Origin: Candidatus Saccharimonadota bacterium | GTDB taxonomy: Bacteria; Patescibacteriota; Saccharimonadia; Saccharimonadales; SLHW01 | Reading direction: 5' to 3' | Length of the DNA: 64,000 nt | Assembly (NCBI GenBank): GCA_050486305.1 | Contig: JBJHDA010000001.1 | Coordinates: forward strand, 499,071 to 563,070 | Part shown: positions 12,796-39,805 of the stretch, piece after piece | How positions within the stretch are numbered: the stretch's first letter is position 1 | Layout: the number at the start of each line of letters is the position of its first letter | Position numbers and translations under genes: made by a program | Notes under the pieces: model-generated | What the model was told of the DNA's origin: nothing | Database searches by the model: none | What the model saw: the letters and a program-made list of their open reading frames with translations, nothing else

Positions 12796-13788
12796 ATGAG
12801 CGATATTGTTGGTCCTGAAGATTTCGCGCGCAGAAGACGAGAGCACGAAGAGAGGCGAAAGCTGGCGGAGAGTGAGGCTGACATTACATCAGGCCACCCT
12901 TCCCAGGCCGGGAGAAGACTTGCTGCAGAAATTATTCGGCTCATCCCAAATGAAGAGCAATCTCCCCCTCCAGCAGTATCAAATAGCTTTAACCGAATCG
13001 TCTACAAATCTATCCGCGGCGTAATTTCTACTAGAGAAAATACGAACCAACCGACTGAGCAAACAGAGCAGAAAAACGAGACAAGTTCTGACTATTCACC
13101 TACATCGACGCTTCGTGAAACGCTTTTACTTGACTCGAAAACGCTGCAAGGCATCAGCAACAAGTTAGCTGCGGAATACCAAACCGCATATATACCTTTA
13201 TTTGAGTTAGCGGATGACAGTGCGCCGGCTAGGCAACAGATCGCCGTAGTTTCGCATGTTCGCTCAAGCGCTGAAGTGCGAACCAGAAAGTGGCTCGGCA
13301 GCATCACCCAATCCATAGCAGAAAAATCGTCCGACTCAGGACAACTTTTGGACGATTACCCGAACTGGCAAAATACGGTTCAAAGCTTGGCAGAAAGAGC
13401 TCGCACCTCAGTTGACCGTACTGCAGCTGCAGACGTGATACAAAGACTCTCAGACACCCCCCCTTCCACGTACACTAATGTCATCCAGCCACATCGATAT
13501 GCAGCCTGGCTCGCAACAGAGGCAACGATAGACTTCTACCATGAATATGCGTCTTCCCTGGATCGTCTGATTTTTGCCGGCACCGACGAGGAGCTAAGGG
13601 CGGCTATGGTTGATGTCGACCAGCGTCGGCTCATAGAGGCTACGCATTCACAAGCCGGACAGCGGCCTAACAAAATCAGTGCCGGAATACTCATAGACAT
13701 GGCTGGGGCAGCCACTCCTTACCGTGAGACTGAGGCACTCGATTATCAAAATAGGCTTCTTGCGGAAGCGAACCAGCGAGAACTCTGA
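12796..13788 (+). CDS. hypothetical protein
   Basis: A 330-aa ORF with no overlapping better ORF. It is soluble and I recognise no motifs. Confidence 0.55.
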   Translation: MSDIVGPEDFARRRREHEERRKLAESEADITSGHPSQAGRRLAAEIIRLIPNEEQSPPPAVSNSFNRIVYKSIRGVISTRENTNQPTEQTEQKNETSSDYSPTSTLRETLLLDSKTLQGISNKLAAEYQTAYIPLFELADDSAPARQQIAVVSHVRSSAEVRTRKWLGSITQSIAEKSSDSGQLLDDYPNWQNTVQSLAERARTSVDRTAAADVIQRLSDTPPSTYTNVIQPHRYAAWLATEATIDFYHEYASSLDRLIFAGTDEELRAAMVDVDQRRLIEATHSQAGQRPNKISAGILIDMAGAATPYRETEALDYQNRLLAEANQREL

Positions 13789-13804
13789 TACAATAAACGG
13801 CAAG

Positions 13805-14896
13805 ATGGGAACACAGAAGACTGACCGCAAGGTGCAGACTCGACCGCTCGGTATCGCAGCACTCGTTGCGCTCATAGTGGGCGCGATCTTCTTGACACCG
13901 TTTTTTGGCGTTATTGTCACTTCTGTCATTTTGGCCTTTAGCTTTTCGCCGATAAACAGGTGGTTCACGAAACGTACCAAGCGCCCGCATAGTGCGCCGC
14001 TGTTGACGCTGTTGACCGCCTTTTTTATGGTCGTGATTCCACTTGTGCTTATCCTTGGAGTCACCGTTGCTCAAACACGTACGTTGGCTGGCGAGCTGCA
14101 AGAGACAGTAAACGAACTGACTGTGGGCAGAGACACCGAAGAGCTGGTTTTACAAGTAAACCAAACACTGTATACCGTAACTGGCGGCTTAGTCGATGTA
14201 AGTAAAGAGGAAATTATCAGCTTCGCCTCGACCGCGGGTGCGGAGATTGCAAATGGACTCATCCGCATCATTACAAATGTTATCGGCAGCATCCCGGCGA
14301 TGCTAACAGCCGTCGTGCTGTTCATTTATATATTCCTAGCGGTACTTACGTACCAAAAACAAATCATGCGTTTTATTAAACGGCTCAACCCGCTAGGTGA
14401 TGATGTGTACGACCTATACGTTTCACGGACCGCAGCCATGACGAACGGAATGGTGCGCGGGCAATTCCTTATTGCACTTGTACAAGGCATCGTCGGTACG
14501 GCAACATTCGCGATTGCCGGTGTTCCATATCTGGCATTTTTCTTTTTGCTGCTTACGTTCCTGTCAATCATACCGCTCGGAAGCGGGATTGTAAGCTTGC
14601 CGGTAGGTATCATTCTGTTGGCTACCGGAAATATATGGCAAGGACTTGTTGTTTTGCTTGGCCATCTTCTTATCGTTGGGAATATCGATAATATATTGCG
14701 TCCGATTCTCATTCCGAAGGCAGCCAGGTTGCCATCAGCCCTCACATTAATCGGTGTGTTTGCCGGATTAGCAATGTTTGGCTTTTTGGGTATTATCATC
14801 GGGCCGGTGTTAATCATACTGATATTGACAACTCTTGAGGTTTACATAGCGAACAAAGAAATGACGGAAAAGCCGGCTAAAGCCGTCACGAAATAA
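13805..14896 (+). CDS. AI-2E family transporter (PerM/YhhT-like)
   Basis: The start is moved from 13724 to the ATG at 13805, which avoids overlap with the previous gene. It is polytopic with an AI-2E-like C-terminal core (GIVGTATFAIAGVPYLAFFFLL, IPLGSGIVSLP, ILRPIL). Confidence 0.8.
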   Translation: MGTQKTDRKVQTRPLGIAALVALIVGAIFLTPFFGVIVTSVILAFSFSPINRWFTKRTKRPHSAPLLTLLTAFFMVVIPLVLILGVTVAQTRTLAGELQETVNELTVGRDTEELVLQVNQTLYTVTGGLVDVSKEEIISFASTAGAEIANGLIRIITNVIGSIPAMLTAVVLFIYIFLAVLTYQKQIMRFIKRLNPLGDDVYDLYVSRTAAMTNGMVRGQFLIALVQGIVGTATFAIAGVPYLAFFFLLLTFLSIIPLGSGIVSLPVGIILLATGNIWQGLVVLLGHLLIVGNIDNILRPILIPKAARLPSALTLIGVFAGLAMFGFLGIIIGPVLIILILTTLEVYIANKEMTEKPAKAVTK

Positions 14897-14913: not shown

Positions 14914-15888
14914 ATGAACAAACCATCCCGAGGGGAAAATAAGCCAACATTGCTACGAGACTCAAAAGTAGTAGGCACTTCGGTGCTCGTGAGCATATCT
15001 GATGTTGCGATAAATGCCATCGTCGCCGTAATTACCGGTAGCGTGGTTATGCTGTCGCAAGCCCTCCAGGGACTGTCGGACCTTATTACAACTAGCCTGC
15101 TGTACCGCGGCGTAAAAGTCAGCCGGCGTAAACGTGACGAGAAGCACCACTTCGGGTATGGCAGAGAATTATTTTTTTGGGTTATCATAGCCGGCGTATT
15201 CATGTTCTTTGGGACAGGGATGTTGTCGATATTTTTTGGCGTCCGTCAATTCCTCGACCCTCAACCATTACAAGATATATCGATTGCCCTGGTTGTTCTT
15301 GTTATCAGTTTCTTAGCAAACGCTTATGCGTTCTCATTGAGTGTCCGTCGTTTGCGGCAACACCTACCAAAAGGATCGTGGTGGAAAAGTGTTAGGGCAT
15401 CCTCGCTCATTGAAACGAAATCAACTTTCCTGATCGACTTTCTGGGAACGTTGGCAGCAGTGGTCGGATTCTTAGCACTTGGCTTGTTTATTACTACCGG
15501 CAATAGTCAGTTCGACGGATTAGGCGGTATCGTGATAGGTGGACTGATGATGATCGGCTCGAGCTTCATCGTCTTTGACGTAAAAGGCTTGATTGTCGGA
15601 CGCGCCGTCCCAAGGGAGACCGCACAAAAAATCAACGTCGCCGCACTAAGTATTCAGCACGTGTCCCGTGTACTCGACCTACGGACCACTTACATCGGAT
15701 CAAATAAGCTACTTATCATCATTGAGGTGCACCTTGATGACCGATTAAAAACTGACGAGATCGAGATTGTCGGCGATGAAATAAAAGCCTCGATTCGCCA
15801 GGCCATCCCACAGGCAAGTGTTGTTCAGGTGGAGGTAGAGACTCCGGACGAAGAGCTTTCCGCCCACGGCGAAAGGCATCAGCAGTGA
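14914..15888 (+). CDS. cation diffusion facilitator (CDF) family transporter
   Basis: 324 aa with six TM helices and a CDF signature region (SDVAINAIVAVITGSVVMLSQALQGLSDL ... HHFGYGR). It has a C-terminal cytoplasmic domain. Confidence 0.85.
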   Translation: MNKPSRGENKPTLLRDSKVVGTSVLVSISDVAINAIVAVITGSVVMLSQALQGLSDLITTSLLYRGVKVSRRKRDEKHHFGYGRELFFWVIIAGVFMFFGTGMLSIFFGVRQFLDPQPLQDISIALVVLVISFLANAYAFSLSVRRLRQHLPKGSWWKSVRASSLIETKSTFLIDFLGTLAAVVGFLALGLFITTGNSQFDGLGGIVIGGLMMIGSSFIVFDVKGLIVGRAVPRETAQKINVAALSIQHVSRVLDLRTTYIGSNKLLIIIEVHLDDRLKTDEIEIVGDEIKASIRQAIPQASVVQVEVETPDEELSAHGERHQQ

Positions 15889-16553
15889 GTAAACGCGCGG
15901 TGCTTAAGTTTTCCCTGCTCGTCCTCCTGGTATTGCTCGCTTTTTTTGGCGTTAATCAATACGAAATATTTAATAACGTTAACGTTGTGAGATGGCAAGA
16001 TGGCATCCAGAACCTCGGCATCTGGGCGCCGATCGGCTTTATACTGCTCTACACAATCGGAACGATCGTTTTTCTGCCTGGTACGATTTTTACGCTGATC
16101 GGCGGCGCGGCATTTGGTGTGTTTTGGGGCAGCATTCTCGGCATCATTGCAGCTACGTGTGGAGCTCTCGGCGCACATTTTACTGCACGCCTGCTCGGCA
16201 AGGACTTTATTGACTCGCTCGTTATGAATAATTTCAAACGGCTACATCGGTACAATAATAAAATCGCTTCTGAAGGCTTCCTTACAATACTCATACTTCG
16301 GCTGACTCCGTTTATCCCGTATAACATCTTGAATCTCGCGTTGGCTTACTCGCCGGTAAAAACCAGGGATTATACCCTGGCAACCGCAGCCGGTATCGCA
16401 CCGGGAATCATAGCGTATGTTTACCTTGGTGAGGCGGTAGCCACCCTTTCTCTGCGTAATATTATTTTTGGTGTTTTTGGCATATTGCTCTACATGGTTT
16501 TTACCGCAGCGCTTGTTTGGCGGGTGCGACAAGCAAGGATAGCTACAAAATAA
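15885..16553 (+). CDS. TVP38/TMEM64 (DedA-related) family membrane protein
   Basis: 222 aa with motifs PGTIFTLIGGAAFG and RLTPFIPYNILNLALAYSPV. It overlaps the CDF stop by 4 nt. Confidence 0.8.
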   Translation: MSKRAVLKFSLLVLLVLLAFFGVNQYEIFNNVNVVRWQDGIQNLGIWAPIGFILLYTIGTIVFLPGTIFTLIGGAAFGVFWGSILGIIAATCGALGAHFTARLLGKDFIDSLVMNNFKRLHRYNNKIASEGFLTILILRLTPFIPYNILNLALAYSPVKTRDYTLATAAGIAPGIIAYVYLGEAVATLSLRNIIFGVFGILLYMVFTAALVWRVRQARIATK

Positions 16554-16571: not shown

Positions 16572-18320
16572 TTAGATACGGGTGGAGAGTCTCCGCTTCA
16601 CGTTAAGCAGTATGCGCTTAGCATCGAGCCGCCACTCCCATCCTCCATATAGAAGTACTGACCCGAGCACAAAGCCGGACAGCAGCCAGTTGGCGTTATC
16701 TGATGATGCTGCAACGTGAACGTCTTGTACTCCCATCGTTTCACTGTTCGGCTCGACAACATTCCGGCAGCGGTTCGTTTCTGGATTTCGTTCTTGGCCC
16801 GGGCCACAAGGGACCAAGTCGGTTGAAGCAGAAGATATTGAGCGGCAGCGATTCGTCTCTGGATTGCGTTCTTGACCTTCACCGCACGGTACGAGCTGGC
16901 TCGCTTGATTTATGTTCCGGCAGCGGTTCGTTTCTGGATTTCGCTCCTGTCCTGGCCCACATGGAACGAACTGACTGGCTGCAGCTGCTACGTTACGGCA
17001 GCGATTCGTCTCTGGATTGCGTTCTTGACCCTCTGGACACGGCGATAGTGTTTCTGTTGACGATTCTATGTTCCGGCAACGGTTCGTATCAGGATTACGC
17101 TCCTGGCCTTCTGGGCAAGGACGAAGCGGCATCTCCTCGTTCTCCTGATGCGGGGTAGTGCTGTACGTAATCTCCCAGGTATCGTTGCCGAACCAAGACC
17201 ATGACGCCGCTTCGGGCATACCAGCAGGGTACGTCTGTGTATCAGCCTCCTTCTGGTCTGTCGTTAGTAAATAGACAGTACCGCTTGGAGCTACCGGCAG
17301 CTGTACATCTGTTTCACCCTCGTAAAACGCTCTGTACTCATGGCCATCCAGCTTATCATCCTCTGTAAACCAGTAAATTGTAGTGTTTGCGCTAGACTGA
17401 AGCCCGCAACCGTACAAGCTTACCGTATCGTTTGTTGTATTGTGAAGCTCGATAAAAGCGTGTTCAGCTCTTGGGAACTCGCTTCTCGGTCCTTGAGGAT
17501 TTGGCAAGAGCTCTGAAAAAACAATACCGTCACAGTAATCGGTGTCCGTAGGAGTATTTTCGTCGGGATCTGTTTTTTCATCTTCAGGATTGTCTTGCTC
17601 GTTGCTGTCGCCTTCATCATCATGGCTGCCATTGTCCGTATCGTCTTCGCCTGGCGCATCGGGCTCATCACAAGCAGCCGCTTGCCATGGGCTAGGCTGA
17701 CTTGAAATAAAAAAGTCCTCTGCATTATTTTCAGAATTCACTAAACCTTCATCACTGAAACATCGGAATAACGAAGTATCAGGGTCTTCGAGCGACAGTG
17801 CTGGCTCCTCCTGGTAATACGTAGCAGATCCGTACCCGACCAAATCAGCAACTTCTTCTGAATCATCTAAAAGCAGAACGCTCCCGTCATGATAGTTCAA
17901 GTACCCGCTGGCAAAACGGCCTTCAATATAATAATCAGCTTCTGGCAGATAGTCCTCATAGCTAATCACAAAGAACTCCTTTGGTGGGATTTTTATAGCA
18001 GTGCTTTCTGTGTCATGAAATGCAGCAACGACACGAGTGGTGGTACCAGCCTGATTTATAAACTCAAGCCGCCAGCCATCAATAGAAACGTACTCATCGT
18101 GTGGATTGTAAAGTTCCACGAACTCCATGGTTCCGTCCGTCGACAGCTCACCATCCTCGTCCAGCAACGATCCGTGTGTTTGTAGCTCCGTAATAAAAAC
18201 GCTCGCTGCTGATTCACTATTGCTGTCGGCCTCAGCGAGAACAGAGCGAAAGGCTGCGGCTGGCCAGCTAAGCGCTAAGATAAATGCGATAAACAAGTGT
18301 GCTATAGCTTGTCTTTTCAT
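16572..18320 (-). CDS. secreted, C-terminally membrane-anchored protein with two lamin-tail domains and five Cys-pair repeats
   Basis: It has a signal peptide (ALSWPAAAFRS) and two LTD-like modules (VFITEL...MEFVELYNPHDEYVSIDGWRLEF; IVFSELLPNP...AFIELHNTTNDTVSLYGCGL). An acidic linker separates them. Five copies of C-[PG]-x-GQERNP-[ED]-TNRCR follow, then a terminal TM helix. Confidence 0.8.
   Translation of the reverse strand: MKRQAIAHLFIAFILALSWPAAAFRSVLAEADSNSESAASVFITELQTHGSLLDEDGELSTDGTMEFVELYNPHDEYVSIDGWRLEFINQAGTTTRVVAAFHDTESTAIKIPPKEFFVISYEDYLPEADYYIEGRFASGYLNYHDGSVLLLDDSEEVADLVGYGSATYYQEEPALSLEDPDTSLFRCFSDEGLVNSENNAEDFFISSQPSPWQAAACDEPDAPGEDDTDNGSHDDEGDSNEQDNPEDEKTDPDENTPTDTDYCDGIVFSELLPNPQGPRSEFPRAEHAFIELHNTTNDTVSLYGCGLQSSANTTIYWFTEDDKLDGHEYRAFYEGETDVQLPVAPSGTVYLLTTDQKEADTQTYPAGMPEAASWSWFGNDTWEITYSTTPHQENEEMPLRPCPEGQERNPDTNRCRNIESSTETLSPCPEGQERNPETNRCRNVAAAASQFVPCGPGQERNPETNRCRNINQASQLVPCGEGQERNPETNRCRSISSASTDLVPCGPGQERNPETNRCRNVVEPNSETMGVQDVHVAASSDNANWLLSGFVLGSVLLYGGWEWRLDAKRILLNVKRRLSTRI
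16758..17120 (-). repeat. five in-frame tandem repeats (72-78 bp period) encoding C-x-x-GQERNPxTNRC units
   Basis: The DNA core cggcagcg[ga]ttcgt[tc]tctggatt[tg]cg recurs near 16764, 16846, 16917, 16995 and 17073. The codon phase is preserved. Confidence 0.9.
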
Positions 18321-23679: not shown

Positions 23680-24720
23680 ATGCGAGAAACAGAAATCGAT
23701 TATCGAAGGAATACTCCTGAGCATCGATTTCCTATGGCTCGAAGGTGGGCAGCGGCAGGGATGATTGCGTTAATCGGCACCTTTGGCATACAGAACAAAG
23801 AAACGATCCAAGCATATTACCCATTTATAGATCCTATTTTCGGTGAAGCAGATATTGTACCCGATGTACGTGATTGCCCGCCGATACCAGACGAATACAG
23901 TGAGATACCACTTACTGAAGTCAATGGCTCTGTACATGATGTACGGTCAACTGCTCGTAATTTTGAGTCTGCCGGCATACGACCATTTCAGACTGTCGAG
24001 ACAATCCGGACATTCTTTGACTACCCGCAAGAATCATATACGTCTCCAACTTCTGGCATAGAATTCGTCTTCTATAGTGACGAGGCAGACGCTGGCTGGA
24101 TGGTCGATCCTGAAGCATTTGATGAACTGTTTCATTTTAGCCTGACAGCTGAACACGAGTATGGGCACCCTTCGGTAAACCACGTGGTCAACTGCTTACG
24201 AGAGCGAATCATAGATAATAGAGAGTTCGCTGGCAAAGAATACTCAATTTATATACCAAGCAACCCGCGCACCTGCTTAGGAAACGGTCGAATCATTAAC
24301 CTAGTGAACACCCCCGATGCTGCCTGTCACCAACGGGGCTTCGCCCCGCCAAAGCTCGACGTATCGTACGGTCCCTTTGAAATTATGGAAGGAAAGATTA
24401 TGATTCTCACCGGCGGCAGAAATGATGACACCAGATACACTAGCATGAACATGAACAGGCTCGCCTTTCATGAAAGCATCCACGCAACCACCGTACTGCC
24501 TGGCGAACGCTCATTCCGCATGGACCCAAACGAAAAATGGGCAAAATACCAAGAACGCATTCTGCTTGCTGAACATCGGGAGAAGTTTGATCAAATCGCA
24601 CCGTTTATTACATTCTTTAACGATGTTCCTCCAGAAATCCTGGAAGCAGCGAATAGTCGAGAGCAGCTTAAAGCAGACTTTAGAGCAGCGTTGAAAAATA
24701 ATACCAAAACTGCACAATAA
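23680..24720 (+). CDS. membrane-anchored hypothetical protein with two HExxH motifs
   Basis: 346 aa with an N-terminal TM helix (WAAAGMIALIGTFGI). HEYGH and AFHESIHA motifs are present, and no family is recognised. Confidence 0.55.
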   Translation: MRETEIDYRRNTPEHRFPMARRWAAAGMIALIGTFGIQNKETIQAYYPFIDPIFGEADIVPDVRDCPPIPDEYSEIPLTEVNGSVHDVRSTARNFESAGIRPFQTVETIRTFFDYPQESYTSPTSGIEFVFYSDEADAGWMVDPEAFDELFHFSLTAEHEYGHPSVNHVVNCLRERIIDNREFAGKEYSIYIPSNPRTCLGNGRIINLVNTPDAACHQRGFAPPKLDVSYGPFEIMEGKIMILTGGRNDDTRYTSMNMNRLAFHESIHATTVLPGERSFRMDPNEKWAKYQERILLAEHREKFDQIAPFITFFNDVPPEILEAANSREQLKADFRAALKNNTKTAQ

Positions 24721-25324
24721 TCATATAAACGACGATAATAAACCAAACGGCAATAATCGTAACATTATGCTTGGCGATAAACCGCAAAGTCGGCTGCACC
24801 GCCGGTTGTTTAAACTGAAAGATTTGCTGCCTCACCCCATAAGCAATAACACCGAACATGATTGGTACTACGGCGACCCAAATTACCATACACCACGGGC
24901 AAAGCGCTCGTATAACGAACAAGCTTTGGTAAACAAGATACTGCACAGAAATAAACCCGATTAACGAAGCGCCGAGCACCGCGTTCCAGAACCAGGGCTT
25001 GAGCCTTGCGCCTGCTATCAAAGCAATCCCGAGTGTCATCAGTGCCGCAAAAATACCAACACCAAGCAGCGAGTGTGGTATCCCAAAAAGGCTAGCTTGC
25101 GCACTGTCCATAACAGAGCCGCAACTTAAAATTGGATTAATATCGCAAAGTGGAACGCGACCTGGCTGTTCAAGCGAAGCTATTTTTTCAAGCATTAATG
25201 ACAAAGATGCGATAAATCCAAGGCCCCCAGAAATAACCAAAAATGTCGGCAGAAACCGTTCCCAAGCGAAAGCTCGCTTCGGTTGATGTTCGTCTAGGGT
25301 TGCTACTCTTTGCTTTTTCTTCAT
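24680..25324 (-). CDS. vitamin K epoxide reductase (VKOR) family protein
   Basis: 214 aa with 4-5 TM helices, a loop Cys pair (CDINPILSC) and the active-site CPWC in a TM helix. Confidence 0.8.
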   Translation of the reverse strand: MKKKQRVATLDEHQPKRAFAWERFLPTFLVISGGLGFIASLSLMLEKIASLEQPGRVPLCDINPILSCGSVMDSAQASLFGIPHSLLGVGIFAALMTLGIALIAGARLKPWFWNAVLGASLIGFISVQYLVYQSLFVIRALCPWCMVIWVAVVPIMFGVIAYGVRQQIFQFKQPAVQPTLRFIAKHNVTIIAVWFIIVVYMIIVQFWYYFSTLL

Positions 25325-25390: not shown

Positions 25391-26263
25391 TTATTTTTCC
25401 GAAAAATCTGTATACGTCACCGTCGTCGGCGTCAGCCGAATAACGATGTAGTATCCCTCCCGAAGCGTCGTTACTGGCGGTGATTTCTTTCCCTCTTTAT
25501 AATTGCGCTCCTGTACGACATGATTGAAGATCTGATCTTGTTTATCTTGACGCGTCTCGACTGTCGCTTCTGCTTGAAGCTGAGCTGTTTGCAGCGATCC
25601 GTCAGCGTGTATCGTCAAAGCGACCCCTGGATTGTTCATAATATTCCTAGCCTTTTGGCTGCCAGACTTGGTTACGATATATATCCTCCCATCATGATCG
25701 AGGACATAGTGAACAACCGCACCGCTGGGCGCACCTGACTTATCGGCCGTTGAAAGTACAGCAACATCATGCTCGGCAATGTAGTCAAATGCCTCTTGGC
25801 TAATTACGTCTTGGAGCTTTGAGTTTTTATCAACTTCCTGAAAATATCGTCCTGAGCTCTGGTCATACTGCCCGCCACTCAGTCGCCGAGATTCGATATA
25901 TTTAATAAAAACATCCGCTGCACGTTTCCCCACAAAACGTAGCGCGTAGTCACCTACCCGAGTCTGTAATGTAACTGATGAAAACGGGCCGGTTGTGTTT
26001 GATTGAATGCCTGAAACGATATCGTAAGTAAGGATGTCTTTAGTGGTAAAAAATGGCTTTCTATCTAGGTAGATCACTCGCTTTTCAGTCGCAACAAGCA
26101 TACACCACCCACCCTGACCTAAACCATAAATCGCACCTCCAATATGCTCGTCCTCATAGATGACGGATGGCAGATAGCGGCCTTCCGCACGAAATAAACT
26201 TAGTGAGTCGATGCCGACATTTGTGAGCTCTTGGTATATTCGATTTTTGTGGCTTTTCGACAT
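25391..26263 (-). CDS. bacterial PH domain / pyridoxamine 5'-phosphate oxidase-family fusion protein
   Basis: The N-terminus is YokE-like bPH (YEDEHIGGAIYG...MLVATEKRVIYLD). The C-terminal PNPOx-like split barrel reads VAVLSTADKSGAPSGAVVHYVLDHDGRIYIVTKSGSQKARNI. Confidence 0.7.
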   Translation of the reverse strand: MSKSHKNRIYQELTNVGIDSLSLFRAEGRYLPSVIYEDEHIGGAIYGLGQGGWCMLVATEKRVIYLDRKPFFTTKDILTYDIVSGIQSNTTGPFSSVTLQTRVGDYALRFVGKRAADVFIKYIESRRLSGGQYDQSSGRYFQEVDKNSKLQDVISQEAFDYIAEHDVAVLSTADKSGAPSGAVVHYVLDHDGRIYIVTKSGSQKARNIMNNPGVALTIHADGSLQTAQLQAEATVETRQDKQDQIFNHVVQERNYKEGKKSPPVTTLREGYYIVIRLTPTTVTYTDFSEK

Positions 26264-26354
26264 CTCACATCTCCCCTATTGTGCTGTCTATATTATAGTA
26301 TATTTAGCTTAAGCACGCCACTGAGGTATACCGCTTATGTTATAGTCGAGTACT

Positions 26355-27104
26355 ATGCGTGACCTAAGCATCCGCTTGATACAACGACGGAGGCGCTTTT
26401 TTGCGTATATCTGTGTCGCCATCGTCTTCTTTGCGGTTATTGCCTCTGAAGAGCGCCAGAGAATCGAGACAAATGCTTCAGCTGCCGATACTGCCCAGGT
26501 AAAAGAGGGCATAAGAAGCGGCATATACACGCTTGCGATTGAAGCGCTCGGAGAACTCGCTGTTCGTGAACGAGTTGACAGAACGGGTTATTCCCGAAGT
26601 AATTTCAGTCCTGGCTGGGCTACAGTAGACGGCTGCGATATGCGTAACCGGATATTGCAACGCGACCTTACGGAGGTTGTGTTAGCTGACGATAACTGTA
26701 CTGTGCTTAGCGGAATACTTAGGGAGGATCCTTTCAGCGGTAAGCGCATAGATTTTGAGCGTGGTCCAGATACCAGTGGTGATATTCATATCGAACATAT
26801 CGTTGCCGTATCAGACGCCTGGCAAAAAGGAGCACAGAATCTTTCGTACGAGGAGCGTTACGAATTTTATAACGATCCACTCAATCTTATTGCAATAGAC
26901 GGCCCAACTAACATGGAAAAGGGAGACAAAGATGCGTCTGACTGGATGCCAGTCCGGCAATACAGGTGTCGTTATGTTGCACGCCAGATAGCAATAAAGC
27001 TGCGCTACGATTTATGGCTTGATTACGCTGAGCACCGAGCTATGAAGCAGAAGCTCGACACCTGCCCAATGCAGGTTCTACCCGTACAGAAAGAAGCCCG
27101 CTAA
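26355..27104 (+). CDS. membrane-anchored HNH/DUF1524-type (GmrSD C-terminal-like) nuclease
   Basis: It has an N-terminal TM helix and a His-Me finger-like block (DIHIEHIVAVSDAWQKGA ... DPLNLIAIDGPTNMEKGDKDASDWMP). Its stop TAA overlaps the comEC ATG as TAATG. Confidence 0.75.
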   Translation: MRDLSIRLIQRRRRFFAYICVAIVFFAVIASEERQRIETNASAADTAQVKEGIRSGIYTLAIEALGELAVRERVDRTGYSRSNFSPGWATVDGCDMRNRILQRDLTEVVLADDNCTVLSGILREDPFSGKRIDFERGPDTSGDIHIEHIVAVSDAWQKGAQNLSYEERYEFYNDPLNLIAIDGPTNMEKGDKDASDWMPVRQYRCRYVARQIAIKLRYDLWLDYAEHRAMKQKLDTCPMQVLPVQKEAR

Positions 27105-28579
27105 TGAAGCTGGCTGCATTCAAACAAACCGTAAAGAGCAAACGTTTTCACGTTTCTTGGCTAATTGCCTGGTCATCAATTGGTATATTGCTTGGCGCCG
27201 TCTTCATTCGTTTTATCGAGCCGGCTAGGTATGCCGGCTTTGATTGGCTCTTGATCGCCCTCTGTGTGTTCTTTGCGGCTTACATAAAGCGCTCAGTGAT
27301 CGCCCTTTTGCTTGCTTTCACTGCTGGAGTATTCCTTGGGCTTTATGTCGGAGCCGCTAAGCTCATTACCCTAGAGCCACTCATCGCATTGCATGGCTCT
27401 CAACAAACTATCACCGGTACCATACGTAATGACACGACTCGCGGACCATCAGGCGATCAACGGTTTCGCATGGCTGATCTTCATGTTGGCAGCACCCCTA
27501 TGACCGGAGCAATATGGGTGAGCACGGCTGCTGACACGGAGTTAAAGCGCGGTGATGTCATTACAGTTAGTGGGGAGCTCTCGGAAGGATTCGGAACCAT
27601 GCAGGCAAGCCTTTTTCGGGCAACACTTGAGAATGTAACACGGCCAGAGCCTGGAGATGTAGCGAGAGCCGCCCGTGATGGTTTTTCCGATAAAGTAAGG
27701 CAGTTCATCCATGACCCCATGGCAAACATTGGTGTCAGTTTTTTAGTCGGTCAACGCAGCGGCCTACCTGATGACGTACAGGATATGTTTCGCGACTTAG
27801 GTCTCGTTCACCTGGTTGTCGCCAGTGGCTTTCATCTTACAATTGTTGTGCGTTTTAGCAGGCGGCTTTTTGTCGCCAGATCAAAATATATGGCTCTCGT
27901 GTCCAGTCTCGGTCTGATAGGCGGCTTTTTGCTCCTAACAGGCTTCAGCACTTCCATGATTCGTGCCTCGCTCGTGACGGCACTAAGTCTCTTGGCCTGG
28001 TATGTAGGCAGAAATATCCATCCGCTCGTCCTTTTGCCTTTCGTTGCAGCAATAACAGTCATCATTAATCCGCTGTATATCTGGTCGGATCTCGCTTGGT
28101 ATTTATCATTCACCGCTTTTACAGGCGTAATTATACTTGCGCCACTCATACAAAAATATTTCTGGAATCCAGACAAAGAGCCGGGCTTTGTGCGTTACCT
28201 CATCATTGCCACCTTATCTGCACAACTACTTACCTTTCCGATTATCGCTCTCGCTTTTGAGCAATTTTCGCCCCTCGCTATTCTAGCTAATTTGCTCGTC
28301 TTGCCATTCGTTCCGTTTGCTATGCTCGGCACCTTCGTTACTGGGATAATCGGCTATCTCATACCTTGGCTAGCTAATGTAGCTGCGGCAATCACTTCGA
28401 TCGGATTATCCTACATAAACGCTGTTGTTGAATATTTATCGGGGCTGCCTTGGGCAACCGGCCATGTCTCAATCTCACCCGTATTTATCGCAGTGTTCTA
28501 CGTCGGGATACTAATGTTTATGTATTATCTGCAGCGTACGACAGGGCACAGCCTGCGCACCGAAAATCCAGTTGAGTGA
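27104..28579 (+). CDS. comEC: ComEC/Rec2 DNA-uptake channel (OB/DUF4131 + competence domain; no metallo-beta-lactamase domain)
   Basis: 491 aa with an N-terminal OB-like region (ITGTIRND...VITVSGEL) and a competence domain (FLVGQRSGLPDDV...GLVHLVVASGFHLTIV...SMIRA). The ORF ends right after the last TM helix, and no HxHxDH motif is present. Confidence 0.85.
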   Translation: MKLAAFKQTVKSKRFHVSWLIAWSSIGILLGAVFIRFIEPARYAGFDWLLIALCVFFAAYIKRSVIALLLAFTAGVFLGLYVGAAKLITLEPLIALHGSQQTITGTIRNDTTRGPSGDQRFRMADLHVGSTPMTGAIWVSTAADTELKRGDVITVSGELSEGFGTMQASLFRATLENVTRPEPGDVARAARDGFSDKVRQFIHDPMANIGVSFLVGQRSGLPDDVQDMFRDLGLVHLVVASGFHLTIVVRFSRRLFVARSKYMALVSSLGLIGGFLLLTGFSTSMIRASLVTALSLLAWYVGRNIHPLVLLPFVAAITVIINPLYIWSDLAWYLSFTAFTGVIILAPLIQKYFWNPDKEPGFVRYLIIATLSAQLLTFPIIALAFEQFSPLAILANLLVLPFVPFAMLGTFVTGIIGYLIPWLANVAAAITSIGLSYINAVVEYLSGLPWATGHVSISPVFIAVFYVGILMFMYYLQRTTGHSLRTENPVE

Positions 28580-29299: not shown

Positions 29300-30061
29300 T
29301 TATCCGCGGTAACTGCTAACTATATTGACAGCTTCTTGAATATCATCAGTGATAACATATAGCTCTCTGTCTTCTTTATCGATTGTTTTGTATGTTTCGG
29401 CAAGATATTTTTTTATATATGTATCTAGTGGATTCCAGAAATCCGAGCCCACAAGAATAATTGGTATCTGTTTAATCCGGTCTGTTTGCTTTAAGGTTAA
29501 TATTTCAAATAGTTCATCAAGTGTTCCAAAGCCACCAGGAAAATATATATATGCGCGAGCAGCAAACGATAATGCTACCTTGCGACTAAAAAAATAGTAG
29601 AAATCGACTGAGCGATTTACATATTCGTTCGTTACTTGTTCGTGTGGTAACTGGATTGTCATCCCAATTGAAACCCCGTTTTCATCTGCAGCACCACGGT
29701 TTGCTGCCTCCATAATTCCTGGACCGCCGCCTGTGATAACCGATGCCCCTGTGTCCCGAACGATATGATCAGCGAGTTCCCTCGCTTTTTTGTAGTGCTT
29801 ATCCTCTGGCTGCAAACGAGCAGAGCCAAAAAACGTTACAGTATTTTGGTGGTTTTTCAGTAATTTAAACGTCTGCTTGAATTCTTTATTTATCTGGCGC
29901 ATGCGCTTACGAGTCGCTCGATTTGAAGCATCGGCAATATGAAACTTCTCTTCACGCATTATGGTTTTTAATGCTGAATGATGTCGAAACTGCTTTTTTA
30001 GTTTCATTTTTATTTTTTCCATCTTAAGCACTAGCGTAGCCGAAAAATACAGTTTTTGCAA
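29300..30061 (-). CDS. LOG/TIGR00730 family protein (cytokinin riboside 5'-monophosphate phosphoribohydrolase-like)
   Basis: Motifs present: VTFFGSAR, ITGGGPGIMEAANRGA, PGGFGTLDELFE. The start is uncertain, with alternative ATGs at 30022, 30007 and 29959. Confidence 0.8.
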   Translation of the reverse strand: MQKLYFSATLVLKMEKIKMKLKKQFRHHSALKTIMREEKFHIADASNRATRKRMRQINKEFKQTFKLLKNHQNTVTFFGSARLQPEDKHYKKARELADHIVRDTGASVITGGGPGIMEAANRGAADENGVSIGMTIQLPHEQVTNEYVNRSVDFYYFFSRKVALSFAARAYIYFPGGFGTLDELFEILTLKQTDRIKQIPIILVGSDFWNPLDTYIKKYLAETYKTIDKEDRELYVITDDIQEAVNIVSSYRG

Positions 30062-30109
30062 AGCTTGCTCATATTTTTCAATCCCTATAGTTTTACGTAT
30101 ACTACAGCC

Positions 30110-30805
30110 ATGCCTAGAGACAAAAAAACTTCAGAAGCAGAGCAGCCATGGCCGCGGATGAAAGCCTTCCTCGCCTCTAAGCCTTTACTGTTCTTGTTCA
30201 GTCTAATCAATTGGCCTCGGCGAACAATAAGAAGAATGTACCGATGGGTTGTGGGGTGGTCAGAAGGAAAAAATGCCGAACGGGCACTTGGCGGTATAGC
30301 CTTCGCTGAGAGCTCGGTTTTCCCTATTCCTCCAGACCCGCTTCTTATCGCTATGACTACCGTGCAGCCAAAAAAGTATCTCCGTTTTGCAGCAATATGC
30401 ACAATCGCGAGCGTTTTGGGCGGGGCACTAGGCTATTTTATCGGTGTAGGACTGTTCGAGACCGTTGGAAGGTGGGTAATCGATACCTATAGTCTGCATA
30501 GTGAATTCGAAATAATCGGCCAACGCTATAGCGAGAACGCTTTTTTGGCAATATTTACGGCCGCCTTTACGCCTATCCCTTATAAGCTTATTGCAATATC
30601 AGCAGGCGTCTTCCATGTAAACCTGCTCGTTTTTATCATTGCTTCTATCATTGGTCGTGGAGGACGCTTCTTTGCAGTAGCACTCGCAATGCACCACTTT
30701 GGCAAGCGCTATAAAGACACGATCGAAAAATATATCGACCTGCTGTCTCTCGCCTTTACTGCCTTAGTTATCCTCGGTTTTGTAGCGATTCGCTATTTGC
30801 TGTAA
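30110..30805 (+). CDS. YqaA/DedA-related membrane protein
   Basis: The start is moved to the ATG at 30110 (MPRDKK...). Motifs are ESSVFPIPPDPLLIAM and FTPIPYKLIAISAG. Confidence 0.7.
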   Translation: MPRDKKTSEAEQPWPRMKAFLASKPLLFLFSLINWPRRTIRRMYRWVVGWSEGKNAERALGGIAFAESSVFPIPPDPLLIAMTTVQPKKYLRFAAICTIASVLGGALGYFIGVGLFETVGRWVIDTYSLHSEFEIIGQRYSENAFLAIFTAAFTPIPYKLIAISAGVFHVNLLVFIIASIIGRGGRFFAVALAMHHFGKRYKDTIEKYIDLLSLAFTALVILGFVAIRYLL

Positions 30806-31802
30806 CTTTCGCTTTTAGTGCTGGGTTAATTTTTTCGTTTCTGAAGCTATCCACGCCGGCGCTAACAAGGAGTGCTGTCGGTACAGCGAGCAACCCCCCG
30901 ATGATGCCAAATAGTATCGTACCTATCAAGAACGCGGTTAATACAATAATCGGGTGTAAGTGAACGGCTTTACCCATTAAAATTGGGGACAGTACATGGC
31001 TTTCAAGCTGCTGAATAACAACATACACCAGTGCGACAATTAGCCCTTTCTCGACTGAATCGGTCAATCCGAGCAAGATCGCAGGAACAGAAGCCAGAAT
31101 TGGGCCAATCAACGGGACAATCTCAAATAAAGCCGCGATTATACCGAGAACCCCGGCGAACGGTAGGCCAAGTGCCAGTGCTGACAGCCAAACCATTACC
31201 CCGACTACAGTACTGATTAGCATTTGGCCAATGAACCATCTGCTCAGCTTTATCTCGACACGAATCCATATGTCTTCGATTCTTTTTTGATATTGTTTTG
31301 GCACAAACGATACGAGAGTTTTCTTTAATGAATCGTAGCCCCGCAGCCAATACATCGTCAATACGAGTACAGCCAACAATACCCCTATAGCCTGAAGAAC
31401 CGAAAAGCCAATAACGAGAGCAAGAGAGCCAATATCAGCGAACCTATCCCGTACAAGGTCGAGCAGTGCTTGCTCATCCACACCAATTGCCTCCATAAAC
31501 GGTATTCCGCCTAAGATCGCAGGAAATTCTCTGATAAATTTCGGAAACTGTTCTGCGACTGCCGGGGCCACGTAAACGCCTAGACCGGTTAATATCCCAG
31601 CAAAAGCCAAGATAGGAATCAGGACAGCTAACATGGAGGGAAGCTTAACCTTATGTAAAATACGGACAAGCGGCAGCAAGATAACGGTTAACATAAACGA
31701 CACAAGTAAAATAAGTGCAACGAACTGCAGTCGCCAGAGTATAACAACCGTCAGGCCGATTGCCATTAGTTTATAGAGCTGTTTCATTGTTGCGCTATCC
31801 AT
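30768..31802 (-). CDS. AI-2E family transporter (second copy)
   Basis: 344 aa, polytopic, with an AI-2E-like core (GLPFAGVLGIIAALFEIVPLIGPILASVPA, ESHVLSPILMG). Confidence 0.8.
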   Translation of the reverse strand: MDSATMKQLYKLMAIGLTVVILWRLQFVALILLVSFMLTVILLPLVRILHKVKLPSMLAVLIPILAFAGILTGLGVYVAPAVAEQFPKFIREFPAILGGIPFMEAIGVDEQALLDLVRDRFADIGSLALVIGFSVLQAIGVLLAVLVLTMYWLRGYDSLKKTLVSFVPKQYQKRIEDIWIRVEIKLSRWFIGQMLISTVVGVMVWLSALALGLPFAGVLGIIAALFEIVPLIGPILASVPAILLGLTDSVEKGLIVALVYVVIQQLESHVLSPILMGKAVHLHPIIVLTAFLIGTILFGIIGGLLAVPTALLVSAGVDSFRNEKINPALKAKVTANSESLQNRG

Positions 31803-35450: not shown

Positions 35451-35951
35451 TTAAAGCTTACCTTCCCTTATTTTGCGTAAACCAAGCAAAATAAGTTTGC
35501 TGATATCTTCATATGCAATCGTGTCTACCGCTTCGGCAGCAGGAAACCACTTTATGCCGTTCATCCAGTCCTCTGGCTTCAAGTCATCCGTATCACCTAA
35601 TGCCTTCACTAAAAAGATTTCTGTTGTCATGAGCACGAGACTTGATTGACGACGGTATCGAAAGTTTATTTTCCCGAGCCAGTGCATCACTTTCATTTCC
35701 TTCAGCCCAGTCTCTTCCTTGATTTCACGCTCAGCAGCTTCTCTTGCGCTTTCACCTTCTTCAATGTGACCCTTTGGAATCGTCCATCGATTCTTCGCAT
35801 CTTGGATAAGTAAAATTTCGACATTCTTGCTGGTTTTTGCCCGACGGAAAATAATTCCGCCTGCCGTCGGCTCACGGACAACCTCTTTGATGCTGGGCTT
35901 TCGCTTATTGACAAATTTTTTCAGCCCTTGGATTGGCTTGGGTCGTTTCAT
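35451..35951 (-). CDS. NUDIX hydrolase
   Basis: It carries the Nudix box GHIEEGESAREAAEREIKEETGL (GX5EX7REUXEEXGU). Confidence 0.85.
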   Translation of the reverse strand: MKRPKPIQGLKKFVNKRKPSIKEVVREPTAGGIIFRRAKTSKNVEILLIQDAKNRWTIPKGHIEEGESAREAAEREIKEETGLKEMKVMHWLGKINFRYRRQSSLVLMTTEIFLVKALGDTDDLKPEDWMNGIKWFPAAEAVDTIAYEDISKLILLGLRKIREGKL

Positions 35952-36880: not shown

Positions 36881-39805
36881 TCAAACAACAAAGTTGACCA
36901 ACTTTCCCGGAACATAAATGACTTTTTTAAGCTCATTATTATTCACGTAGGCCTTCGTTCGTTCATGCCCGAGTGCAGCAGAAACTACATCATCTTTTTC
37001 GCTATCTGCCGCAACCTCTATGTTTGCCCTTACCTTACCGTTCACCTGTACAACGATAGTGATTGTATCGCTCGCCAGCTTTGCCTCATCATAGCTCGGC
37101 CAATTATCTACGTGGACGGTACTTTTATTGCCCATATCACTCCAAAGCTCCTCACTGATATGCGGCGCAAATGGGGCGAGCACCTGAAGAAGACTCTCCA
37201 GCGCGAAACGCCATGTTTTTGTCTGAGAAACTCCATTACCCTGCTTAACTTTATATAGCTCATTCAACGCACTCATCATGGCCGCAATTGCAGTATTGAA
37301 CTTGTCGGCATCAATATCTTCTGTGACTTTTTTTATCATTTTATGCGTTGCAGTTTCGAGCTGCCTCTCTGCAGCTGTGCTGCTCTTGGGTTCGCCTTCA
37401 GCTCCAATAAATTCTTGTACAATTGTCCAGACGCGATTTAAAAATCGGTAGGTACCCGGAATTCCCTGCTCGTCCCAAAGCACATCCATTTCCACGGGAG
37501 CCGCAAACATCTCGTAAAGCCGCAGCGCATCGGCGCCATAACCGCTCTCAATTACATCAAGAGGATCAACGCCAGTCCCTTTGCTCTTACTGAACATCGA
37601 GCCGTCTGCCGCCCTGACCTTACCGTTGTAAACCATTTTTGAGAAAGGCTCTGGCTTAGTAACAAGTCCGAGCTTATGGAAAAAGCGCATAAAAAACCGT
37701 GCATACAATAAGTGTGCTGTCGCATGATCACCACCGTTGTAAAAATCCACCGGAAGCCACTTTCCGGCAAGTTTTACATCCCATGGCTGGACCTCATCAT
37801 TCGGGCTCAAGTACCGTAAGAAGTACCAGCTTGAACAAACGTATCCATCCATCGTATCAGTCTCTCGTTTTGCTGGCTCACGGCACTTCGGACACTGCAC
37901 GTTAACCCAGTCTTCCACGCCAGCTAACACGGATGCATGTCCACCTGTCGGCTTATAGTTTTGAATCTCGGGCAAGATAACCGGCAGGTCTTCTTCTGGT
38001 ACGGCTACCGGGCCACAAGTTTCGCAGTGGATAATTGGAATGGGTGCGCCCCAATACCGTTGCCGCGATATGAGCCAATCACGCATTTTATATTGGATTT
38101 TCGGCTCTGCTGACCCCTGCTTTTGCAAATCATTGATAATCGCCGTAGCTGCCTGGGCTGTCGTCATACCGTTATACTTTCCAGAATTCGTGAGCAAGCC
38201 TTCGCCACTATAGCATTCACCAAGCACAAGATATCGATAAAACGTCTCGTGAATACCGTCATCCAACATGCTCGCTGCAGCCTCAACCGGCTGCCAGGTT
38301 ACAGAAAATTTCCCTTCTTCACCATCATCAAGATCTGTCGTGTCTTTTTCTTGGTCAACGAGATCAAATAGTAATCCTTTACCGCTCACGTGCATATTTT
38401 TGTGCTTCGTGTTTGAGTAGAAGTAGCCGTGTCCAGAAAATTCCGCTTCTTTAACAAGTTCTAGATTTTTATAGCCTGTCTCTTCTTGGATTTCGCGTTT
38501 TGCCGCCTGTACGTAAGTTTCATTTTCCTCAACTCCGCCACCAATTAGCATATTACCGCCGTGGCGCTCTTTACGCGGGCCCCAGTCTAATACAATGACT
38601 TTATTTTTCTCTGGGTTCCTTACTGCGACAAATACTGATTTTTTGTAGGTGTCATCACCTTGCGGCTCGCCATAGGTAGGCTCAACTACAAACCGGATAG
38701 GCAAATCAAACTTATTTGCAAACGCAAAATCCCGTTCATCATGGGCTGGCACAGCCATGATAGCGCCAGTTCCGTATCCATATAGCACATAATCAGCAAT
38801 CCAAATTGGCATTTCTTCATTCGTTAACGGATTAACGGCGTATGCACCCGTAAAAACACCTGTTTTTTCCGCGCCAGCCTCTTGACGCTCGACATCGCTT
38901 TTTTGCTGTGCCTGTTTTACGTATACTTCGACAGCCTCTTGTTGCTCCGGAATTGATATTTTAGAGACTATCGGATGCTCGGGCGCTACCACCATAAATG
39001 TCGCGCCAGCTAACGTGTCCGGACGTGTAGTAAACACATCAAGGGAAGCGTCAGAATCACGTACGGTAAATGTAATTTGTGCGCCCTCACTTCGACCAAT
39101 CCAGCTTTTCTGAGAAGCCTTCACCGACTGGGTCCAGTTTAGTTCATCGGTTGCCTGAAGCATTTCATCAGCATAATCTGTAATTTTGAAAAACCACTGT
39201 TTCAAGTTTTTCTTTGTTACAAGCGGATCGTCAGGATTATCGTGGCGCCAACACTTTCCACCAAGCACTTGCTCATCAGCCAGCACGGTCTTGCACTGAT
39301 CACACCACCACTGCGGACTTTCTTTTTGATACGCGAGTCCGTTTTCAAATAGCTTTGTAAATATCCATTGCGTCCACTTGTAATAACCTGGATCTGTCGT
39401 ATTAATCTCTTTCGACCAATCGACCGCCCACCCCATTGCCCGATATTGCCGTTGATACTTCTTGACCGCTTCTGCAGTAGAGTCCTGTGGCGAAACACCT
39501 GTCTTTATCGCGTAGTTCTCTGCCGGCAGACCAAACGAGTCCCAGCCAACAGGTTGGTATGTTTCATACCCTTGCTGTCGCTTTACCCTGGTAATTACGT
39601 CAGGAATTGTATAGTTACGAACGTGCCCGACGTGGATACCTGCTCCGCTCGGATAATTAAACATGCCAAAGCCCATAAACTTGGGTTTATCGCTCGACAT
39701 ATCTGCTTGATATATCCCGCTCTTTTCCCAGTTTTGCTGCCACTTCGGCTCAATATCTTTTGGGTTATAACGCCTCATATCCATGCCATTATACGGCATT
39801 ACCAT
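36881..39805 (-). CDS. leuS: leucyl-tRNA synthetase carrying an internal Nudix-fold insertion
   Basis: 974 aa with HIGH (HVGH), KMSKS-type (FSKSKG), CP1 editing motifs (TTRPDTLAGATF, GTGAIMAVPAHDERD) and RDWLISRQRYWGAPIP. The start is uncertain, with ATGs at 39805, 39784 and 39778. Confidence 0.95.
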   Translation of the reverse strand: MVMPYNGMDMRRYNPKDIEPKWQQNWEKSGIYQADMSSDKPKFMGFGMFNYPSGAGIHVGHVRNYTIPDVITRVKRQQGYETYQPVGWDSFGLPAENYAIKTGVSPQDSTAEAVKKYQRQYRAMGWAVDWSKEINTTDPGYYKWTQWIFTKLFENGLAYQKESPQWWCDQCKTVLADEQVLGGKCWRHDNPDDPLVTKKNLKQWFFKITDYADEMLQATDELNWTQSVKASQKSWIGRSEGAQITFTVRDSDASLDVFTTRPDTLAGATFMVVAPEHPIVSKISIPEQQEAVEVYVKQAQQKSDVERQEAGAEKTGVFTGAYAVNPLTNEEMPIWIADYVLYGYGTGAIMAVPAHDERDFAFANKFDLPIRFVVEPTYGEPQGDDTYKKSVFVAVRNPEKNKVIVLDWGPRKERHGGNMLIGGGVEENETYVQAAKREIQEETGYKNLELVKEAEFSGHGYFYSNTKHKNMHVSGKGLLFDLVDQEKDTTDLDDGEEGKFSVTWQPVEAAASMLDDGIHETFYRYLVLGECYSGEGLLTNSGKYNGMTTAQAATAIINDLQKQGSAEPKIQYKMRDWLISRQRYWGAPIPIIHCETCGPVAVPEEDLPVILPEIQNYKPTGGHASVLAGVEDWVNVQCPKCREPAKRETDTMDGYVCSSWYFLRYLSPNDEVQPWDVKLAGKWLPVDFYNGGDHATAHLLYARFFMRFFHKLGLVTKPEPFSKMVYNGKVRAADGSMFSKSKGTGVDPLDVIESGYGADALRLYEMFAAPVEMDVLWDEQGIPGTYRFLNRVWTIVQEFIGAEGEPKSSTAAERQLETATHKMIKKVTEDIDADKFNTAIAAMMSALNELYKVKQGNGVSQTKTWRFALESLLQVLAPFAPHISEELWSDMGNKSTVHVDNWPSYDEAKLASDTITIVVQVNGKVRANIEVAADSEKDDVVSAALGHERTKAYVNNNELKKVIYVPGKLVNFVV
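38216..38653 (-). other. Nudix hydrolase-like module inserted in LeuRS (approx. residues 385-530)
   Basis: I translated nt 38471-38539 directly and obtained GGVEENETYVQAAKREIQEETGY, a perfect GX5EX7REUXEEXGU box. The flanking beta-strand-like segments (VFVAVRNPEKNKVIVLDWG, GKGLLFDLV) fit a Nudix fold. Confidence 0.75.

Follow-up and report, generated by a model that had tools for sequence, protein, structure and literature searches.

Described nucleases of DNA uptake and the locus compared with them

In full-length ComEC proteins, such as those of Bacillus subtilis and Moorella, a metallo-beta-lactamase (MBL) domain forms an extracytoplasmic nuclease at the channel entrance, where it works together with the oligonucleotide-binding (OB) fold. 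In Streptococcus pneumoniae the nuclease EndA acts beside ComEC and degrades the non-transported strand (PMC8579336, PMC12455585), and B. subtilis NucA is a membrane-associated entry nuclease that cuts surface-bound DNA to make ends for uptake (PMC8579336). How ComEC proteins without the MBL domain handle the second strand has been called an open question (Silale et al. 2021, PMC8579336; PMC12455585). The present analysis concerns a stretch of 64,000 nucleotides from Candidatus Saccharimonadota bacterium (contig JBJHDA010000001.1; the whole stretch is called the window below), in which the gene of a membrane-anchored nuclease of the DUF1524 family is directly followed by the gene of such a short ComEC. 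The catalytic residues of the nuclease are conserved, the pair recurs across a deep clade, and the nuclease is a candidate for processing DNA at the channel entrance. The pair comprises the following features:

26355..27104, + strand: DUF1524 nuclease gene, 249 aa (open reading frame, Pfam PF07510, 1405 homologues, AlphaFold2 model with pLDDT 88.5)
26397..26453, + strand: N-terminal transmembrane anchor, nuclease residues 15-33, with the basic patch RRRRF before it (hydropathy, homologue conservation)
26526..27083, + strand: globular nuclease domain, residues 58-243, predicted extracytoplasmic (four Cys, catalytic set, pLDDT about 90 or higher)
27102..27106, + strand: TAATG stop/start overlap of the nuclease gene and comEC (read directly from the sequence)
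27104..28579, + strand: comEC of the 'DC' type, 491 aa (Pfam, NCBIfam, AlphaFold2)
27401..27640, + strand: OB-fold (DUF4131) domain of ComEC, residues 100-179 (AlphaFold2, Foldseek, sub-threshold Pfam match)
27743..28537, + strand: Competence channel domain of ComEC, residues 214-478 (Pfam PF03772, E=2.3e-45)

The best functional analogue of the window nuclease is EndA of S. pneumoniae, with which it has in common an N-terminal membrane anchor and a non-specific His-Me-finger (beta-beta-alpha-metal) nuclease domain, the lack of specificity and the extracytoplasmic location being predictions for the window protein. The two proteins belong to different families, EndA to Endonuclease_NS/DRGH and the window protein to DUF1524, and no homology between them was detected: the window protein has no Pfam Endonuclease_NS match, and a search with its profile found no relative among the PDB sequences, which are expected to include EndA. 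The endA gene of pneumococcus is not known to be in an operon with comEC. Also the channels differ, as the pneumococcal ComEC keeps a probably inactive MBL domain while the window ComEC has none at all.

The likeness to B. subtilis NucA consists of the membrane association and, by analogy, of a candidate role in DNA entry. The NucA family is unrelated to the window nuclease and has the inhibitor Nin (ComI) as a partner, whereas no inhibitor-like gene was seen at the window locus, and the ComEC of B. subtilis carries its own active MBL nuclease, which the window ComEC does not. The role proposed for the window nuclease in the earlier note is that of the MBL domain of full-length ComEC. The MBL domain has a two-metal site and is covalently fused to the channel; the window nuclease would have a one-metal His-Me site in a separate, anchored protein.

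The endonuclease I family (Vvn, V. cholerae Dns, E. coli EndA) consists of secreted or periplasmic, disulfide-containing His-Me DNases, as is predicted also for the window nuclease, but these enzymes are soluble, while the window nuclease is anchored and has no Pfam Endonuclease_1 match. PF07510 is shared with GmrSD, BrxU and SspE. Those are cytoplasmic, multi-domain proteins with a DUF262 NTPase/sensor domain, whereas the window nuclease stands alone, has a transmembrane anchor and four cysteines, and is predicted to be exported. True orthologues are the secreted DUF1524-Excalibur proteins of actinobacteria, about 50% identical, with an extra C-terminal Excalibur domain and variable gene contexts. 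In the literature searched, no characterised member of this actinobacterial group was found, nor any paper on exported stand-alone bacterial DUF1524 nucleases or on linkage between DUF1524 and comEC; exported DUF1524 forms are not discussed in Machnicka 2015. Set against the described systems, the window protein is plausibly an entry nuclease like EndA and NucA, accessory to competence but of another nuclease family, whose gene shares an operon with that of the channel.

The nuclease and the short ComEC

Both open reading frames described in the earlier note are present at the positions it gave, with 249 and 491 aa, and the two motifs that it quoted, HIEHIVAVSDAW and NLIAIDGPTNMEKGDKDASDW, are found in the nuclease translation. 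Its assignment of the first protein to DUF1524 was borne out by the hidden Markov model search, in which GmrSD_C/DUF1524 of Pfam (PF07510) matched nearly the full model (positions 2-136 of 138) with E=1.4e-16 and 61.1 bits (cut-off 23). No DUF262/GmrS N-terminal domain was found in the nuclease, where GmrSD_C is the only domain, or in the neighbouring genes, and all of the 1405 homologues are single-domain proteins of about 240-260 aa. By its domain content the protein is a bona fide DUF1524 member and not a GmrSD enzyme.

The catalytic residues H148, D174 and K189 are present in all 100 orthologues compared, D193 in 99 and N173 and N186 in 98 of them. Because the catalytic His-Me residues are kept in at least 98 of the 100 sequences, the nuclease is very probably active. 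Also the four cysteines of the domain (C94, C115, C205 and C237) are kept in 99-100 of the same orthologues. Foldseek searches with the nuclease and ComEC models produced no match at E<=0.001 and were used as fold-class hints only; the PDB set behind them is older than the 2026 full-length ComEC structure. The top matches of the nuclease model were all His-Me nucleases, with weak values (E at least 0.15, TM-score 0.33-0.42), and those in the lead, likewise weak and read as hints of fold class, belonged to the endonuclease I family (Vvn and V. cholerae Dns) and also included Cas9 HNH domains. The orthologue of Southlakia epibionticum was placed by Wang et al. (PMC10633639) in the ECOD domain e1oupA1, the same as that of the endonuclease I match. 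When the DUF1524 profile was compared with the PDB sequences, no relative was found, the sole match being a spurious one to titin.

According to the hydropathy profile, the nuclease has a single transmembrane segment (residues 15-33). Six Lys or Arg residues stand ahead of this helix and a net acidic stretch behind it, which by the positive-inside rule gives an N-in/C-out orientation, and RRRRF with the hydrophobic stretch is kept in 18 nuclease homologues. A reading of RRRRF as a signal for twin-arginine translocation was rejected, since the Southlakia annotation contains neither TatA nor TatC, and the motif was taken as a positive-inside anchor. An exported domain with four cysteines would need extracytoplasmic disulfide formation, so the following gene, located 1 kb upstream of the nuclease gene and arranged in the same way in the related locus L001, is relevant as context:

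24680..25324, - strand: VKOR disulfide oxidoreductase gene, context only (Pfam VKOR, E=6e-37)

In Southlakia both VKOR and DsbA are present, and both are essential. Excalibur domains are typical of extracellular proteins, and such a domain is carried by the actinobacterial nuclease orthologues. Because of the positive-inside charge, the four invariant cysteines, the VKOR and DsbA proteins of the phylum and the Excalibur domain of the actinobacterial orthologues, the nuclease domain is predicted to be exported, disulfide-bonded, membrane-tethered and outward-facing. This is the topology that the earlier note had proposed to check.

The second protein of the pair shows the Competence domain in Pfam at residues 214-478 and scored 76.5 bits with the NCBIfam model of the ComEC core (TIGR00360, cut-off 36.5), while the score with the equivalog model of full-length ComEC/Rec2 (TIGR00361) was 64.9 bits against a cut-off of 190. 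Lactamase_B had no Pfam match in the protein, and the motif HxHxD[HR] is absent from all six frames of the window. The lack of Lactamase_B, the low TIGR00361 score and the absence of the motif from the window together make the protein not a full-length ComEC of the 'DCL' type but one of the 'DC' subtype, which is a known architecture (Pimentel & Zhang 2018, PMC6299819). The DUF4131 domain remained below the Pfam threshold (23.7 bits against 31.6, E=4e-5). In the AlphaFold2 model (pLDDT 86.6, pTM 0.81) three helices at the N terminus lead into a beta domain (residues 100-179), which is followed by a helical channel. The beta domain resembles the OB folds of SSB and PriB with a Foldseek probability of 0.99; judged from the model, the OB fold is real despite its sub-threshold score. 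The last helix covers residues 459-480 and the protein ends 11 residues further, and the description in the earlier note, a 491-aa ComEC with OB and Competence domains that ends just past its last helix and has no MBL motif, thus holds.

The best 120 ComEC homologues are all 371-520 aa long. Because none of them has Lactamase_B, a ComEC without the MBL domain is the norm in Saccharibacteria, and it is functional: in Southlakia the MBL-less ComEC is needed for natural transformation (Wang et al. 2023, PMC10633639). The named homologues of the nuclease and of ComEC alike belong to Candidatus Saccharibacteria/Saccharimonadales. In the roughly 15 kb that flank the pair on each side, neither further com genes nor an MBL gene were found. 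An MBL protein encoded elsewhere among com genes, which the earlier note had named as a contrary finding, is not present in the window, and in the annotation tables of Southlakia the sole MBL-fold protein (211 aa) is unrelated to the com genes; no ComEA is annotated in them.

Conservation of the nuclease-comEC pair

At the junction the sequence reads CCCGC TAATG AAG, with the stop codon TAA at 27102-27104 and the ATG at 27104-27106, so that one nucleotide is common to both genes, in agreement with the overlap reported earlier. The overlap suggests that the nuclease gene and comEC are translationally coupled. Promoter and terminator scans produced counts equal to the shuffled expectation and no site within the intergenic region 26264-26354.

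The scan of species-representative genomes with the nuclease profile gave 80 loci, including about 44 of Saccharibacteria or other Candidate Phyla Radiation (CPR) bacteria, about 35 of Actinomycetota and one labelled Acidobacteriota. ComEC is encoded directly downstream of the nuclease in seven of the 80 loci, and all these seven are Saccharibacteria (7 of about 44). The reciprocal scan of metagenomes with the ComEC profile gave 80 loci of 39-47% identity, 68 of them with sufficient upstream sequence, and among these 68 the nuclease gene was located directly upstream of comEC in 19 and 3.5 kb off in one (L150). The two genes were also found together on many short contigs in the protein database.

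Besides the window, 26 loci thus have the two genes directly adjacent (seven genomes and 19 metagenome contigs). When the window is included, the stop-to-start distance in the 27 linked loci lies between -44 and +151 bp (median 4 bp), and the genes overlap in 12 of them. The mutual identity of the linked ComEC proteins is 36-73% (median 46%). In the ComEC tree they form deep basal lineages, while the unlinked ones form one separate clade. The earlier note had held that occurrence in this genome only would refute its proposal; with 26 further adjacent loci and ComEC identity down to 36%, the pair clearly extends beyond it.

Upstream of the nuclease gene, about 14 different genes were found among about 20 loci, and the nuclease-comEC junction was never interrupted. 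Gene-order maps were drawn of 26 loci, including 25 linked ones and the 3.5-kb case L150. In 16 of these the order is nuclease, ComEC and a lamin-tail-domain (LTD) surface protein of 480-590 aa, and locus L011 is a seventeenth case with a short open reading frame between ComEC and LTD. The LTD gene is not adjacent in the sub-clade of the window (window, L001 and L002), and the window orthologue, identified by tblastn against the LTD neighbour of locus L128 (E=2.5e-48), is located 9 kb from the pair:

16572..18320, - strand: LTD surface protein, 582 aa (Pfam LTD, E=2.4e-17; tblastn orthologue of the L128 LTD protein)

Judged from gene order, nuclease-comEC, in most relatives together with LTD, is a conserved, clade-specific operon. 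Preserved while all its surroundings were reshuffled, the pairing appears to be of old date, and this speaks for a functional connection between the two genes.

No other neighbour accompanies comEC in Saccharibacteria as consistently as the LTD family, which is present in 49 of the 80 comEC loci, both nuclease-linked and unlinked. The proteins are about 500-590 aa long, with Cys-rich TNFR-like repeats and a C-terminal transmembrane helix (e.g. L128 5514..7151 and L083 6317..8032). ComEA was found near none of the Saccharibacteria comEC genes examined. A function as DNA receptor or in host contact is conceivable for the LTD protein, and in the window it is a possible third partner of the nuclease and ComEC.

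Some other genes of the window were recorded as well. Divergent from the nuclease gene is a gene of 290 aa that joins bPH_3 with a pyridoxamine-5'-phosphate-oxidase-like domain (25391..26263, - strand), and this fusion gene is the upstream neighbour kept in the nearest relatives of the window, L001 and L002. Two pairs of paralogues flank the operon within 17 kb: transporters of the AI-2E family (13724..14896, + strand, and 30768..31802, - strand) and VTT/DedA-domain proteins (15885..16553 and 30056..30805, both + strand). The leucyl-tRNA synthetase (974 aa, 36881..39805, - strand) has a NUDIX insert at residues 387-522, directly behind the editing domain (Pfam E=9e-14), and a second, separate NUDIX gene is found near it (35451..35951).

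Role of the nuclease and competing explanations

The explanation put forward for the pair, to which somewhat less than an even chance is given, is that a tethered, outward-facing His-Me DNase, co-expressed with ComEC, processes incoming DNA at or near the channel entrance in the manner of EndA or NucA. The operon would comprise two genes here and three in most relatives, and the nuclease and ComEC would be translated from a shared mRNA and enter the membrane next to each other. DNA would reach the membrane presumably via a type IV pilus, the tethered nuclease would nick or cut it so that ends are formed and/or one strand is removed, and the OB fold of ComEC would take up the single strand, which the channel would import for transformation and/or nucleotide supply. 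The protein would in that case be a DNase coupled physically or functionally to ComEC, and it might either degrade the complementary strand, as the MBL domain does elsewhere, or only make ends.

Several findings weigh against this explanation. The earlier note had asked whether an MBL-less comEC consistently follows a DUF1524 gene, and it does not: the genes are linked in just 19 of the 68 assessable metagenomic comEC loci and in 7 of the about 44 DUF1524 loci, and in 48 of those 68 a DUF1524 gene is absent from the nearest 4 kb. About 25 nuclease loci of Saccharibacteria, among them those of Nanosynbacter, TM7 HOT-348 and Southlakia epibionticum, have another context, with pepN on the opposite strand, the nuclease gene, yhhQ/tgt, nusA and further on clpC. 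The Southlakia orthologue SEML1_0519 (226 aa) is located beside an M1 peptidase gene, about 245 kb from comEC and thus unlinked, and it is dispensable, as both SEML1_0519 and the ComEC gene SEML1_0777 were non-essential in transposon sequencing (Tn-seq) of the co-culture. The LTD protein SEML1_0775 was essential in the Southlakia Tn-seq though ComEC was not, and adjacency to comEC is therefore no guarantee of a common function. The ComEC tree fits one gain or loss of the linkage, so that the many linked loci are not independent replication.

Also the wider distribution and the fold of the nuclease stand on this opposing side. Orthologues of Actinomycetota number more than 7700 matches of about 50% identity, mostly with a C-terminal Excalibur domain. 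In Kineococcus sp. SYSU DK004 (L061 5749..10341) a DUF1524-Excalibur gene is followed by ComEA (SLBB and HHH_3) and by a ComEC with both Competence and Lactamase_B, and because the nuclease here stands beside an MBL-bearing ComEC, it is not tied to the loss of the MBL domain. In structure the nuclease comes nearest, if only weakly, to the endonuclease I/Dns enzymes of Vibrio. Vibrio Dns enzymes degrade free DNA and antagonise transformation.

The unlinked comEC genes have a context of their own, in which rimK, a DUF192 gene, a gene of a small transmembrane protein, comEC, yebC, LTD, ruvC and ruvA follow each other. Directly upstream of comEC in this clade, after rimK, are the DUF192 (PF02643) protein and a 160-aa protein with four transmembrane segments (e.g. 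L113 1448..1930 and L144 520..1002), and the short ComEC might have these two as its partners instead. The ComEC of Southlakia epibionticum ML1 (SEML1_0777, 482 aa, with Competence and DUF4131 only) is likewise located beside yebC and an LTD gene. Because the nuclease is kept across the phylum whether linked or not, a partnership with ComEC without linkage is possible.

The actinobacterial orthologues have the same cysteine pattern as those of Saccharibacteria and an N-terminal hydrophobic segment. In the neighbour-joining tree the actinobacterial DUF1524 sequences (L012-L079) are nested among Saccharibacteria clades, and the median identity between Saccharibacteria and Actinobacteria is 51-52%, compared with 54-56% within Saccharibacteria. 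As the identity across the phyla is as high as that within Saccharibacteria, horizontal transfer of the nuclease gene between the epibiont and host phyla is suggested. A general position of the actinobacterial orthologues beside comEA or comEC was considered and rejected, as it is absent in K. rubinsiae, Blastococcus and about 34 other loci; the Kineococcus locus L061 is the sole nuclease-com adjacency outside Saccharibacteria, one in about 37 actinobacterial loci examined. The case is anecdotal, a hint of a connection with DNA uptake that does not depend on the loss of the MBL domain. In K. rubinsiae (L161) the nuclease gene is found behind leuS, an acetyltransferase gene and an amylase gene.

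A broader form of the explanation, regarded as rather unlikely, would make the DUF1524 protein the entry or strand-degrading nuclease of MBL-less ComEC proteins at least throughout Saccharibacteria, linked or not, joined with ComEC into a complex in the membrane, in which LTD might replace ComEA as DNA receptor, the gene having been exchanged with the actinobacterial host phylum. The proposal of the earlier note that the nuclease substitutes for the MBL domain survives in part: the predicted outward topology, the conserved operon and the lack of an MBL gene in the window favour it, while the partial linkage, the unlinked genes of Southlakia and the MBL-bearing ComEC of Kineococcus do not. The 'split module' of that note would imply fission; the findings agree better with a ComEC that was short from the start and to which an accessory nuclease was recruited.

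The rival that survives best, a serious possibility though one held with less confidence than entry processing, is a general surface or extracellular DNase, comparable to Dns/Xds of Vibrio or to corynebacterial NucH, which would serve nucleotide salvage or the clearance of extracellular DNA independently of ComEC, the linkage reflecting historical gene order or loose co-regulation. It agrees with the retention of the family in Saccharibacteria irrespective of linkage and in Actinobacteria with variable neighbours, with the majority of unlinked loci and a tree that fits a single linkage event, with the best structural matches being endonuclease I/Dns, and with the non-essential, unlinked orthologue of Southlakia; Saccharibacteria also are without nucleotide synthesis (PMC10633639). 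On the other hand, the near-overlapping junction has outlasted the scrambling of every other neighbour, which is unusual for functionally unrelated genes, and the nuclease keeps a membrane anchor instead of being released. The general DNase moreover overlaps with the entry nuclease, since salvage by import through ComEC would still make the two proteins partners.

According to a further, improbable explanation the nuclease is a contact-dependent weapon or feeding DNase, obtained from the host phylum and acting, where the epibiont is attached, on DNA of the host or on extracellular DNA derived from it, and its linkage with comEC means co-expression at host contact. The high cross-phylum identity (51-52% against 54-56%), the predicted surface exposure of the domain and the neighbouring LTD protein, essential for epibiotic growth in Southlakia, would fit this, but the Southlakia orthologue is dispensable in the co-culture Tn-seq, no toxin-delivery domain or immunity gene adjoins the nuclease gene, and a membrane-tethered enzyme cannot reach the cytoplasmic DNA of the host. 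A GmrSD-type (type IV restriction) or other anti-phage nuclease beside comEC by chance, as the Pfam name GmrSD_C and the NCBI name 'GmrSD restriction endonuclease domain-containing protein' of some orthologues might suggest, is effectively refuted by the architecture, since the DUF262/GmrS domain is absent, the domain is predicted to be exported and disulfide-bonded, PADLOC found no system and only one marginal match (E=0.0018) over the HNH motif, and the conserved contexts are of the housekeeping type and not defence islands.

About half of all ComEC proteins are without the MBL nuclease domain, and the removal of the second strand in them is a question in the field, for which the conserved operon offers a concrete and testable candidate of how MBL-less channels obtain single-stranded DNA. 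Saccharibacteria are naturally transformable via a short ComEC of this kind (PMC10633639), and transformation underlies the sole genetic system of CPR bacteria. Because SEML1_0519 of Southlakia is non-essential, the candidate is open to knockout. If the processing of DNA at the ComEC entrance should prove false, the protein would still be a predicted surface DNase found throughout the phylum, probably used for nucleotide scavenging. If it is true, the pair would be a second, non-homologous instance of the EndA solution; it could improve the transformation of bacteria of uncultivated lineages, and it would bear on the acquisition of host DNA by epibionts.

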